From Eledone cirrhosa (Eukaryota), in assembly GCA_964016885.1 (NCBI GenBank), contig OZ024760.1, positions 11,470,001 to 11,534,000 on the forward strand: a DNA stretch of 64,000 nt. The letters run 5' to 3'. Below the pieces are notes generated by a model. That model did not search any database. It saw only the letters and a program-made list of their open reading frames with translations, and had not been told where the DNA came from. Position 1 is the stretch's first letter. The number at the start of each line of letters is the position of its first letter. The position numbers were made by a program, and so were the translations under genes. This document shows, piece by piece, positions 22,132 to 58,953 of this stretch.

Positions 22132-22325
22132 ATAGGAACAAGTAAGACCCCGACGGCTGAGCTCAAGCCATTTCGACGGCTAATTCTGTACAGAATTAGC
22201 CTTCGAAACGGCTTGAGCTCAGCCCTCGGGGTCTTACTTGTTCCTATTACCCACTCTACTACCTTAAGTATTGAGTACTTTGGTGCGTTATGGTCCACCT
22301 GGTTCCTTACCATATTTCCTTCGTT
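22132..22325 (+). mobile_element. TA-embedded family A fold-back element
   Basis: Palindrome 22132-22247 centred at 22189/22190, with a unique tail to CCTTCGTT-(TA)n. Confidence 0.85.
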
Positions 22326-22731
22326 ATATATATATATATATATATATATATATATATATAGTAGATTCTTTAGAGTAATGTAACAAATGTCAGTGTGTTA
22401 CCTTTTTAGGTGAGGATCTTTGTTAATATCAAATACAATATATATTCTTCTTGAATATACTTGAGACGTGGCTCAAACTAATTGTAACAATTGTTACTAG
22501 ACATTTCTGTGTTGAGCAACTGCACCATGTGTAGGTAAACACAGACAGATACATACCTATATATATATATATATATATATATATATATATATATATATAT
22601 ATATATATGTGTACATATATGTGTATATGTTTTTATTTATTTTATATAGCCGAGGTTGTATCCAGCTGGGTTTATTGTTTTTCCACGAAATGATATACTT
22701 TGGATTGAAGTGAGGGCACTCAGACACTCAC

Positions 22732-24650
22732 GTGTATATATATATATTTGTATATATATATATATATTTGTATATATATATATATATATATATATATATT
22801 TGTATATATATATATTTGTATATATATATATTTGTATATATATATATATATTTGTATATATATATATATTTGTATATATATATATATATATTTGTATATA
22901 TATATATATATATTTGTATATATATATATTTGTATATATATATATATTTGTATATATCTATATATATTTGTGTATATATATATATATATATATATTTGTA
23001 TATATATATATTTGTATATATATATATATTTGTATATATATATATATATTTGTATATATATATATATATTTGTATATATATATATATATTTGTATATATA
23101 TATATATATTTGTATATATATATATATATTTGTATATATATATATATATTTGTATATATATATATATATTTGTATATATATATATATATTTGTATATATA
23201 TATATATATTTGTATATATATATATTTGTATATATATATATTTGTATATATATATATTTGTATATATATATATATTTGTATATATATATATATATATATA
23301 TATTTGTATATATATATATTTGTATATATATATATTTGTATATATATATATTTGTATATATATATATTTGTATATATATATATATATATTTGTATATATA
23401 TATATATATATGTATATATATATATATATTTGTATATATATATATATATTTGTATATATATATATATATTTGTATATATATATATATATATTTGTATATA
23501 TATATATATATATATTTGTATATATATATATATATATTTGTATATATATATATATATATTTGTATATATATATATATATTTGTATATATATATATATATA
23601 TATTTGTATATATATATATATATATTTGTATATATATATATATATTTGTATATATATATATATTTGTATATATATATATATATATTTGTATATATATATA
23701 TATATTTGTATATATATATATATATTTGTATATATATATATATATTTGTATATATATATATATATTTGTATATATATTTGTATATATATATATATATTTG
23801 TGTATATATATATATATATTTGTGTATATATATATATATATTTGTGTATATATATATATATATATTTGTGTATATATATATATATATTTGTGTATATATA
23901 TATATATATTTGTATATATATATATATATTTGTATATATATATATATATTTGTATATATATATATATATTTGTATATATATATATATATTTGTATATATA
24001 TATATATATTTGTATATATATATATATATTTGTATATATATATATATTTGTATATATATATTTGTATATATATATATATTTGTATATATATATATTTGTA
24101 TATATATATATTTGTATATATATATATTTGTATATATATATATTTGTATATATATATATATATTTGTATATATATATATATATATTTGTGTATATATATA
24201 TATATATATATTTGTGTATATATATATATATATATTTGTGTATATATATATATTTGTATATATATATATATTTGTATATATATATATATTTGTATATATA
24301 TATATATTTGTATATATATATATATTTGTATATATATATATATTTGTATATATATATATATTTGTATATATATATATATTTGTATATATATATATATTTG
24401 TATATATATATATATTTGTATATATATATATATATTTGTGTATATATATATTTGTATATATATATATTTGTATATATATATATATATTTGTGTATATATA
24501 TATATTTGTATATATATATATATTTGTATATATATATATTTGTATATATATATATATATTTGTATATATATATATATATTTGTGTATATATATATATATA
24601 TATTTGTATATATATATATATATTTGTATATATATATATTTGTATATATA
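22732..24650. repeat. (TA)nTTTG compound satellite
   Basis: TTTG interrupts (TA)n about every 16-24 bp. Confidence 0.95.
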
Positions 24651-24687
24651 TGTTGAAAATTGCAAACTCGACTGTCACCACATATCA

Positions 24688-24724
24688 TGAACCTGAAGAT
24701 TGAAAGCATGAAAGTACTTGTTCA
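24688..24724 (+). ncRNA. Minimal type I hammerhead ribozyme (37 nt)
   Basis: TGAAC-CTGAAGA-TTGAAAGCAT-GAAA-GTAC-TT-GTTCA. Stem I is perfect and stem III is the palindrome AAGTACTT. Confidence 0.7.
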
Positions 24725-24889
24725 ATTAACACTTAGAATTTAATATTCTATCATACTATTTCATTATAATACCATTATATATATTTTAAAGGATTGTAAA
24801 TAAAACGAGTAAATCAGACAAAGTTGGAATTCCTCTTATTAATATAATCTTCTATACACAATCATACACACCCGTGTATATTTACCTAT

Positions 24890-26960
24890 CTATATCTATA
24901 TATATATTTGTATATATATATATTTGTATATATATATATATATATTTGTATATATATATATTTGTATATATATATATATTTGTATATATATATATATATA
25001 TATTTGTATATATATATATTTGTATATGTATATATATATTTGTATATATATTTGTATATATATATATATATATATATATATGTATATATATATATTTGTA
25101 TATATATATATTTGTATATATATATATATTTGTATATATATATATATTTGTATATATATATATTTGTATATATATATATATTTGTATATATATATATATT
25201 TGTATATATATATATATTTGTATATATATATATATATATATATATGTATATATATATATTTGTATATATATATATTTGTATATATATATATATTTGTATA
25301 TATATATATATTTGTATATATATATATATATATATATATATATTTGTATATATATATATATTTGTATATATATATATATATATATATATATTTGTATATA
25401 TATATATATTTGTATATATATATATATATATATATATATTTGTATATATATATATATTTGTGTATATATATATATATTTGTATATATATATATTTGTATA
25501 TATATATATATATTTGTATATATATATATTTGTATATATATATATATATATTTGTATATATATATATATTTGTATATATATATATATTTGTGTATATATA
25601 TATATATTTGTATATATATATATATTTGTGTATATATATATATATTTGTATATATATATATTTGTATATATATATATATATTTGTATATATATATATTTG
25701 TATATATATATATATATATTTGTATATATATATATATATATTTGTATATATATATATATTTGTATATATATATATATTTGTATATATATATATATTTGTA
25801 TATATATATATATTTGTATATATATATATATATTTGTATATATATATATATATTTGTATATATATATATATATTTGTATATATATATATATTTGTGTATA
25901 TATATATATATTTGTATATATATATATATTTGTGTATATATATATATATTTGTGTATATATATATATATTTGTGTATATATATATATATATTTGTGTATA
26001 TATATATATATTTGTGTATATATATATTTGAATATATATATATATTTGTGTATATATATATATATTTGTATATAAATATATATATTTGTATATATATATA
26101 TTTGTATATATATATATATATTTGTATATATATATATATTTGTATATATATATATATTTGTATATGTATATATATTTGTATATGTATATATATTTGTATA
26201 TGTATATATATTTGTATATGTATATATATTTGTATATGTATATATATTTGTATATGTATATATATTTGTATATGTATATATATTTGTATATATATATATA
26301 TATTTGTATATATATATATATTTGTATATATATATATATATTTGTATATATATATATATTTGTATATATATATATATATATATTTGTATATATATATATA
26401 TTTGTATATATATATATATATATATTTGTATATATATATATATATATATTTGTATATATATATATATATATATTTGTATATATATATATATATATATATT
26501 TGTATATATATATATATATTTGTATATATATATATATGTTTGTATATATATATATATATATATTTGTATATATATATATATATATATATTTGTATATATA
26601 TATATATATATATATTTGTATATATATATTTGTATATATATATATATATATATTTGTATATATATATATATATATATTTGTATATATATATATATATATA
26701 TTTGTATATATATATATATATATATTTGTATATATATATATATATATATATTTGTATATATATATATATATATATATTTGTATATATATATATATATATA
26801 TATTTGTATATATATATATATATATATTTGTATATATATATATATATATATTTGTATATATATATATATATATTTGTATATATATATATATATATATTTG
26901 TATATATATATATATATATATATTTGTGTATATGTATATAATATATATATATATATATAC
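24890..26960. repeat. (TA)nTTTG compound satellite
   Basis: Same unit as 22732-24650. Confidence 0.95.
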
Positions 26961-56533: not shown

Positions 56534-56614
56534 ATATATATATATATATATATATATATATACACATATAATACAGGTGGGTTTCCGTAAAAGATCAGAA
56601 AGAAGCCATTTACA

Positions 56615-56712
56615 TAGGGTACTCAATACGTTAGTCGACAAGAGGTATATATATTTTATTGTAAAAATGACTTGTACAGGACTAGATCTGTTTCATTCGT
56701 ATGAAATCATCA
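56615..56712 (-). mobile_element. Degenerate family B fragment
   Basis: GTACTCAATAC...TACAGGACTAGATCTGTTTCATTCGTATGAAATCATCA. Confidence 0.65.
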
Positions 56713-57910
56713 TATACATTATAATCAAGTTAAACGAAATGTCGAAAGAATGTTTAAAGAAGACACGTGTTTAAGAAAAAATCTGAATATAAATATAAAC
56801 AATGTGTGTATAGTGATAAGATGTTGTTGTTGTCGTTGTTGCTGTTGTTGTAATTTCTGTGATCACGACTATTATTAATATGGCTATTGTTATACATGTT
56901 TTTCTAAGTTTACACTTGTTGTTCGTGTTGTTCTAGATAGTTTACTGGCGAAGATGAATCCTTACAAAGGCTCGTTTTTTTTCAAGTTGGTGTAATTAAG
57001 TGTGTGTATATATATATATATATATATATACATATATATACACACATATATATGTATATGTATGTATATGTATATATATGTATATGTATATGTATATATA
57101 TATATATATATATATATATATATATATACATATATATATACACACATATATACACACATATATATGTATATGTATGTATATGTATATATATGTATGTATA
57201 TGTATATATATGTATGTATATGTATATATATGTATGTATATGTATATGTATGTATATATATGTATATGTATATATGTATATGTATATATATATATGTATA
57301 TGTATGTATATGTATATATATATGTATATATATGTATGTATGTGTATATATATATGTATATGTATATGTATGTATATGTGTATATGTATGTATATGTATA
57401 TATATATGTATATGTATGTATATGTATATGTATGTATATGTATATATATATGTATATATATGTATGTATGTATGTGTATATATATATGTATATGTATGTA
57501 TGTGTATATATATATGTATATGTATGTATGTGTATATATATATGTATATGTATGTATATGTGTATATGTATGTATATGTATATATGTATGTGTATATATA
57601 TATGTATATGTATGTATATGTATATATGTATGTATGTGTATATATATATGTATATGTATGTATATGTATATATGTATGTATATGTATATATGTATGTATA
57701 TGTATATGTATATGTATGTATATATATATGTATATGTATGTATATATATATGTATATGTATGTATATATATATGTATATGTATGTATATATATATGTATG
57801 TATATATATGTATATGTATGTATATATATGTATATGTATGTATATATATATATATGTATGTGTATGTATGTATATGTGTATATATATATGTATGTATAGT
57901 AATAATAATA

Positions 57911-58195
57911 AATGCAGATATCGGATAAGAAGCACTCTACAGTTTGTAGGACTGGAGTATACATAATATATAAGATCAAAAGATGGTTAAAGGAGTTCCA
58001 TGTATTTTATTATGCGAATTTCAAAAATGTTGATTTAAAACTGAACTATCCACAAGTGTTTTTTAACCTTCATATCATATCTTCCTATTTTATCTGATGA
58101 AAACACAAATGTTATTACATGATGATATTTGTTTTTGAAATGCGCATAATAAAATACATGGAACTCTTTTAACCATCTTTTGATCTTATATATAT
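57911..58195 (+). mobile_element. Family C element with intact hammerhead (58086-58156)
   Basis: TATTTTAT-CTGATGA-stem II-GAAA-TGCGCA-TA-ATAAAATA, with the same inverted layout as 21680-22015. Confidence 0.85.
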
Positions 58196-58758
58196 TATAT
58201 ATATATATATATATATATATATATATATATATATGCGTTTGCATGTGTGTGGGCGTATATATTTATGTACATATAGGTGGTTATTTATGTATCTATCTAT
58301 ATCTCTATATATGTATATATATATATATATATATATATATATATACATATATATATGTGTGTGTAGAGAGAGTAAATATTGCTCTTTATTCTTCAAGTAT
58401 ATATATATATATATATATATAAGTATATATATATATATGTATAAGTATATATATATATATGTATATGTATATATATATAGGTATATATATATGTATATAT
58501 ATATGTATATATATATATATATATATATATATGTGTGTATATATATATATGTATATATATATGTATATATATGTATATATATATATATATATGTATATAT
58601 ATATATATATATATATGTATATATATGTGTATATATATATATATATATATATGTATATATATATATATATATGTGTGTATATATATATATATATGTGTGT
58701 ATATATATATATATATATATGTATATATACATATATATACATATATATATATATATAT

Positions 58759-58953
58759 AACAAAGGAATTGTGGTAAGGAACCAGGTGGACCATAACGCA
58801 CCAGAGTACTCAATACTTAGGGTGGTAGAGTGGTAAATAGGTAAAAGTAAGACCCCGACGGCAGGGCTCAAGCCGTTTCGACGGGGCTATTTCTGTCCAG
58901 AAATAGCCGTCGAAACGGCTTGAGCTCTACCGTAGGGGTCTTACTGTTTCCTA
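58759..58953 (-). mobile_element. TA-embedded family A fold-back element
   Basis: The apex is TTCTGTCCAGAA, with (TA)n on both sides. Confidence 0.85.

Follow-up and report, generated by a model that had tools for sequence, protein, structure and literature searches.

A 64,000-nt stretch of Eledone cirrhosa DNA (contig OZ024760.1, positions 11,470,001 to 11,534,000; hereafter the window) carries palindromic repeats, family A, each copy of which holds only the 3' half of a hammerhead ribozyme. Judged by sequence, their source is an endonuclease-positive (EN+) Penelope-like element (PLE) of the Hydra clade, whose longer units carrying the whole hammerhead we call masters, and the short copies (stubs) are its 5' end. 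The outer ends of the two-armed copies are fixed, a long arm is usually paired with a short one, either arm can be the one that reaches further at the centre, and an extra G frequently precedes the arms. We consider it probable that the stubs arose by twin priming on one capped RNA, with its start likely inside the stem II loop of the ribozyme, followed by end joining.

Element positions were numbered from the A of the TYAGT motif within the stem II loop of the master hammerhead (+1). Four inverted repeats were found in the window, at 22132-22247, 33455-33573, 56418-56533 and 58837-58954, each containing GAAAC-stem III-GTC-GGGGTC and each with its apex at a near-identical element position, and thus the four palindromes with a hammerhead 3' half and a shared apex described in the original prediction were borne out at all four loci. 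Each palindrome consists of an inverted arm of ~57 nt, a partner arm and a one-sided 80-nt tail (+62 to +141), and lies in (AT)n. An arm pattern gave 25,354 exact matches in the 3.0-Gb host genome and its reversed control pattern gave 0, indicating a palindrome family far above chance. Rfam at its gathering score gave no match anywhere in the window.

The original prediction expected unfolded masters linked to a PLE open reading frame (ORF), with a CTGANGA core. Masters of this kind exist, but their core is YTGANAA. CTGANGA before GACGGCTA gave eight matches, seven in an unrelated coding repeat and one in a junction filler, and 30 fetched loci out of 38 matches to CTGANGA before the arm proved to be junction fillers, inverted-arm ends or other families. 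TCWTCAG, tried as the native upstream sequence, gave eight matches without a common flank, one of which, locus L037, led to the master. At L037 the sequence continues beyond the tail, and a query taken from it returned 735 candidates; among the 41 listed, some were paired 3.6 kb apart. The masters are tandem and inverted units of ~3.6 kb (3.57-3.6 kb), each with a pseudo-long terminal repeat (pLTR), an ATG at +232, and coding sequence for reverse transcriptase (RT) as well as a GIY-YIG domain at the C terminus. Two pLTRs lie 3,605 nt apart at L072, L073/L074 contain tandem and inverted units, and L075 holds a short tandem array. The ORF pieces are frameshifted or broken, with YRDD, FDIE-type and VIY..YIG motifs. 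Since RT and GIY-YIG occur in one unit with tandem pLTRs, inverted copies and a tail, the source is an EN+ PLE, and the claim that family A derives from a PLE hammerhead was confirmed by masters carrying the whole hammerhead. The C-terminal ORF piece matched HTH_animal and GIY-YIG clusters among Atlas features; Pfam searches with three ORF pieces and a PDB sequence search with one gave no match. A non-LTR retrozyme, built of head-to-tail whole-hammerhead monomers, was rejected because the copies in and around the window are dispersed, head to head and carry half a hammerhead each. Family A is a very abundant new family of the known PLE kind, whose copies look like inert debris.

The Hydra clade is defined by DKT, CxCX5C, CxxC and CxH motifs, no CCHH and insertion into (TA)n (PMC8557442). 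We found the DKG to DKT change as SDKT in the translations of L072-L074, CxCx5C in the linker of both L072 copies, CxxC in L073 and CxH in all three, and the master endonuclease has a single Cys between GIY and YIG and no CCHH. Nearly all copies in an 864-kb sample, comprising the window and 800 kb around it, have (AT)n flanks. Each master copy has lost one Hydra motif residue, and the RWK position reads RWR. The shortness of the clade (<3 kb), a tendency only (PMC8557442), is not matched by the 3.57-3.6-kb unit. In common with the Hydra clade, for example Hydra-1_Obim in the supplement of the same paper, the element would have a single ORF with RT and C-terminal GIY-YIG, DKT, the linker motifs, (TA)n and a pLTR hammerhead, whereas RWR for RWK, the unit length, a U3:A8 or C3/A8 core, a long stem II loop, a stable stem III and a tail of 80 nt instead of 30-40 nt set it apart. 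Hydra-1_Obim, another cephalopod Hydra family, has a different hammerhead with a CTGAAGA core, and the arm motif of family A does not occur in the Craig supplement. The clade is assigned by these motifs, and the apparent likeness to Hydra-1_Obim comes from a by-eye comparison.

Upstream of the arm, the master pLTR contains stem I, TTGANAA, a G, the 6-bp strand of stem II and a 37-39-nt loop, followed by the half found in the window. Among 34 native hammerheads parsed, 30 had TTGANAA and four had CTGANAA, which gives a 3-8 mismatch, and position N7 was A, C, G or T. The features of a type I hammerhead (stems I-III, a 3-8 pair, GAAA and NUH) were found together in masters only, the window copies being halves, and the three-way junction was the minimum free energy structure in two of four folded copies. 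Rfam at an E-value of 10 gave no match to the master pLTR. The U3-A8 pair is a described PLE hammerhead variant, and this core covariation in a PLE pLTR is shared with Schistosoma (Cervera and de la Pena 2014, PMC4209133), in which the motifs described are minimal and of the dimer type, whereas the hammerhead of family A has a stem III of 5-6 bp and could fold as a monomer. Self-cleavage of the master hammerhead is a predicted activity, and its cut would fall after GUC (+41); no pile-up of arms at +42 was detected among 255 arms, leaving no genomic trace of cleavage, and ribozyme cleavage was rejected as the origin of the 5' ends on that ground. The GAGTAG subfamily (L081, L219 and L235; about a quarter of 100 matches listed) mostly has C3 opposite A8; it is the commonest in the sample and widely spread despite a mismatch expected to weaken the ribozyme. 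A related family on the + strand from L037:1247 onward again has a TTGATAA core, with a stem II that is altered yet paired.

The outer ends of the stubs are fixed at +61 for the short arm and +141 for the long arm, and at both positions a TAT leads into (AT)n. A long arm was joined to a short arm in 55 of 61 head-to-head pairs; one pair was long-long, one was short-short and four were unclassified, suggesting that both RT start sites lie on one RNA. Contigs of two public runs also break at +1, +61 and +141.

We examined the centre of the copies in the unselected 864-kb sample, which gave 69 matches, 48 of them two-armed. A product of folding back at stem II must keep the native 37-39-nt loop between its arms, and this loop was present in none of the 48 copies. 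It was likewise absent from all 82 junctions of a strict parse covering all loci (22 junctions unselected), which needs both stem II strands, counts L131 twice and detects one of two possible native-loop forms. In these 82 junctions the short arm reached further in 34, the long arm in 37 and both equally in 11; fillers were found in 37, overlaps in 32 and blunt joins in 13, and six were perfect palindromes. The long arm started beyond +25 in 11 of the 48 unselected copies, which leaves the short arm without its supposed template, although later deletion could explain some of these cases. At L129 the short arm reaches -34 and the long arm starts at +49, L131 has two long arms in one copy, and both arms carry the whole hammerhead at L168. 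Full-length short arms also stand alone in (AT)n or T runs (L090, L098, L113, L189 and L225). A separate observation is the junction at L132:8454-8707, which contains, between its arms, an inverted 56-nt piece of the element's own ORF start (+289 to +344), a template jump within the RNA.

A second family, Y, with at least 4,007 arms (L001, L017, L024; L255-L284), has a canonical CTGAAGA hammerhead with a palindromic stem III. It has two 3' ends ~100 nt apart, a CCAAT box upstream and an apex at TCATATGA, ~120 nt upstream of the ribozyme, and it forms two-family head-to-head insertions with family A. At L001, L017 and L024 a family A arm meets, 5' to 5', one from this second hammerhead-bearing family.

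Arms were compared in 100 usable pairs out of 113. Arms of the same locus differed at 3.8% of sites against 9.5 +/- 0.3% for shuffled pairs, in agreement with the view that each palindrome is made anew at insertion. The subfamily block was identical in 76 pairs and differed at two or more sites in five, and the partner arm was strictly the closest in 3 of 100, so arms group by subfamily, and neither by side nor strictly by locus, the two outcomes originally set against each other. Variants that had been taken as private to single loci are mostly subfamily markers: the AACGAGTAGG block marks the commonest subfamily (51 of 200 arms), AACAAGTAAG occurs in 14 arms and also in masters, and AAAAGTGTG in three. 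GATAC alone is rare, with 201 arms genome-wide. It is present in both arms at 56339, as originally noted, and at L180, while L238/L239, a single insertion, were the only such case among 30 fetched GATAC loci. Among the first 100 matches listed, GATAC was in both arms at 4 of ~96 places. Rare variants in general were one-armed in 60 cases and shared in three. The likeness of same-locus arms, with rare variants mostly confined to one arm, indicates one source subfamily for both arms and subsequent drift. Apart from this, divergence is equal in arms and tail, and nothing points to repair having continued.

The apex coincides with the initiator-like TYAGT of the stem II loop, whose A(+1) follows a TATA-like box by 29-31 nt; short copies start there or no more than ~9 nt away. 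Arms reaching A(+1) numbered 26,181, of which 5,949 still matched at -9, and the hammerhead 5' half ~45 nt upstream was found at 6,843 places, a count obtained with a separate, shorter pattern that is not nested in the other arm counts; the numbers drop sharply after +1 and then plateau. At -1 the masters have T or C, and the arms have G in 5,050 cases and A in 827. At each of the 30 G loci examined, the G is where the copy departs from the native sequence; by our count it could not have been borrowed from the partner arm in 17. At control position -5, G occurred in seven of the first 100 matches listed, without a G excess. Over all loci, G preceded 29 of 34 arms ending exactly at +1, a proportion inflated by loci selected for G. 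The G excess at -1 suggests that the PLE RT copies the cap. Reading TTYAG at the apex as a splice acceptor was rejected, because the arms keep A(+1), only 9 of 164 start at +3, and the arms have no common upstream exon. A TATA box with an initiator in the pLTR has been noted for Adineta (PMC3846280), and an initiator for Drosophila Penelope (PMC2377424).

In the twin-priming model, RNA polymerase II would start at +1, and perhaps at -4 too, and cap the RNA, which would then hold the 3' half of the ribozyme only. The element protein would nick both strands of (AT)n, and the two 3' ends would prime at +141 and +61 through a match of ~3 nt to TAT. Initiators have a known consensus, and RTs are known to copy the cap and to add a base; both reverse transcriptions would here run off to the cap and often add a C opposite it, read as the extra G, and displacement of the +61 cDNA would be required of the one from +141. 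End joining, by microhomology or fill-in, would connect the 3' tails of the two cDNAs and yield the overlaps, blunt joins and templated fillers. Read-through RNA, primed at a downstream pLTR, would be the source of longer inverted insertions and of masters that have the full hammerhead.

In the original prediction, the native stem II hairpin was where the cDNA folded back to prime itself. The inverted arm does resemble the 5' strand of stem II over 6 nt, and the masters have that stem, but the apex is not the stem II hairpin: its native loop is absent from the palindromes and the inverted arm copies the 3' side of that loop. Snap-back also expects the tailed arm always to reach furthest, which it did not, and family Y makes the same layout upstream of its own hammerhead. 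We therefore regard this route as extremely unlikely. A different form of self-priming deserves more weight, although we still consider it unlikely. Here a single priming at +141 would be followed by folding of the cDNA end on a few bases, self-priming, and cutting and joining of the second strand at the TAT at +61; the centre of the perfect palindrome would later be revised through a break closed by end joining, which would account for the asymmetry and the fillers. Palindromes are known to undergo such revision at their centre. Long/short pairing, arms of one subfamily and a G on both arms are all predicted by this route as well, and self-priming is how palindromes of this kind at junctions were interpreted in print (PMC3846280). 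It accords poorly with the scarcity of perfect palindromes, with full short arms that stand alone or are joined to another family, with the two long arms at L131 and with arms as diverged as the tail, and in vitro both strands were primed at two RNA sites (PMC11167929).

Twin priming could also be correct with an apex that is not the start site, if a U-rich hairpin inside the stem II loop made RT stall or fall off, or if longer cDNAs were trimmed to local microhomologies (AT, TA, ATTC). An inner hairpin ending near -5 to +5 is predicted in some masters, overlaps recur at -4 and -1, and the apex of family Y is an 8-nt palindrome. This account leaves unexplained the six-fold excess of G over A at -1 and the TATA-like box at -29/-31 with TYAGT; moreover, a stronger AAATTT palindrome ~10 nt upstream is seldom used, and arms that pass -9 mostly continue. 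We judge it quite improbable. Very little probability attaches to the view that the arms became alike only once inserted, whether through gene conversion, as was also proposed originally, or through quasi-palindrome correction. GATAC on both arms, at the places listed and at 56339 and L180, is more frequent than independence would give, whereas the 60 to 3 ratio of one-armed to shared rare variants and the 3.8% difference between arms mean that conversion is not needed. A variant already present in the source copy accounts for the few shared cases, and low-rate conversion may add to them.

Several observations weigh against twin priming from a capped start at +1. In the unselected blocks the strict parse found three arms ending exactly at +1, two preceded by A and one by G, too few to assess the G, and 13 of the 30 G's examined may come from the partner arm. 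Many arms pass +1 to -2 to -4, and 3,035 AATT-type arms show ATTY after a non-native base, so that +1 would not suffice as the one start, and a possible second start at A(-4) shows no G excess. The -9 pattern specifies extra bases, and divergence therefore causes part of the drop. In family Y the G is native and the apex is a local palindrome, making the G uninformative there. The three two-family joins came from a motif search, with none among the 48 unselected copies. Failed displacement would leave long arms that stop near +62, but only a few such cases occur, at +59 and +63, along with one solo tail that starts at +59. Both public runs belong to a single study, and the assembled sample may be among them. 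Ribozyme activity, the cap and the start site are inferred from DNA.

In L1 twin priming, the second primer is internal on the same RNA and gives inversions without a duplicated segment or a fixed second site, whereas in family A +1 to +61 is usually copied twice and the second site is fixed. Retroviral strong-stop DNA is a short cDNA made to the capped 5' end plus an extra base. Penelope of Drosophila virilis and Adineta vaga shares head-to-head pLTRs, a one-sided tail, and a TATA box with an initiator-like motif (PMC3846280, PMC8557442), and its palindromes have been read as self-priming on an antisense template (PMC3846280). Family A differs from it in that thousands of ORF-less stubs share one stopping place, where an extra G is found, and their junctions resemble end-joined cDNAs. 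PAc, the Poseidon element of Anolis (Frangieh et al. 2024, PMC11167929), shares two-strand priming, two RT starts bounding a tail and an AT-rich target; its reported starts lie 111-118 nt inside the ORF without target homology, whereas those of family A lie in the 5' untranslated region, 80 nt apart, each at TAT. The portion of that paper covered gives no explanation of the inverted junction, and the passages covered of a 2026 retrozyme preprint do not treat inverted stubs. Within the literature covered, which lay outside subscription journals and bioRxiv supplements, nothing was found on this family, on PLE twin priming or on bases that PLE copies might owe to the cap.

The two-armed insertions of the window illustrate these structures. 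The copy at 22132..22327 (+ strand) begins with an inverted short arm, 22132-22188 (+61 back to +5), joined by TA to a long arm (+5 to +141) with the hammerhead 3' half and tail, and has (AT)n on either flank. The copy at 33376..33573 (- strand, apex about 33513) belongs to the AAAT/CTGCC subfamily; its long arm starts from +3 and its short arm from +1, preceded by G or, alternatively, overlapping by 1 nt. The copy at 56338..56533 (- strand), of the GAGTAG subfamily and with GATAC on both arms, has a long arm from +7, a short arm to -4 and an ATTC overlap at the join. An older copy at 58757..58954 (- strand, apex about 58895) has arms differing at several sites. In a fifth copy, 43395..43514 (+ strand), an inverted short arm +2 to +61 (43395-43454) is fused straight to the tail +82 to +141, with no partner arm that could have templated the full inverted arm. 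The window also contains a solo tail (+59 to +141) between (AT)n runs at 38406..38488 (+ strand) and a tail fragment with an internal deletion at 5183..5235 (- strand).

Other repeats were observed nearby. A perfect 200-nt palindrome of another family at 33081-33280, with a one-sided extension to (AT)n, adjoins the 33376 copy, and its relatives (L022, L029 and L155) have an almost identical starting point. The palindrome at 4876-5014 carries CTGATGA in one of its arms and is extended on one side; it probably represents another PLE stub family. A 75-nt palindrome lies at 16819-16893, and its family has CTGATGA..GAAAC copies at 9192, 44087 and 52323. The sequence at 24651-24973 is a copy of a family found joined to a family A arm at L015. 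Outside the window, L075 (G000:C3:214143000-214150500) contains at 3458-5222 a head-to-tail array of six 274-nt units with an inverted copy at its end; each unit runs from +1 through the tail to just beyond the ATG, which points to several returns to a start site that lies deeper in the RNA.

An inverted pLTR with a tail is the standard PLE layout (PMC8557442); what family A adds to this known structure is the likely position of the start site, within the ribozyme, together with the cap-like G. Craig et al. 2021 (PMC8557442) named the formation of inverted PLE ends as an open question. We tentatively propose, as a possibility somewhat short of even, that the PLE core promoter is nested in the ribozyme, with the TATA-like box overlapping the 5' strand of stem II and the start site in the stem II loop. 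The capped mRNA would then be born with half a hammerhead and could not cut off its own RT start sites, the whole ribozyme would occur only at a downstream pLTR, and a dimeric RT would prime both strands on one RNA, copy the cap and leave paired cDNAs resembling strong-stop DNA. If true, this reading would settle how PLE inverted ends form, and a start inside the ribozyme would offer a testable reason for the harmlessness of a 5' hammerhead. The natural products, by the tens of thousands, favour priming of both target strands from two fixed sites on the RNA, which widens the 2024 in vitro result to cover the Hydra clade as well as the inverted junction. If the twin-priming model holds, these stubs would map the start site, the RT start sites and the end-joining step of a PLE from DNA alone.

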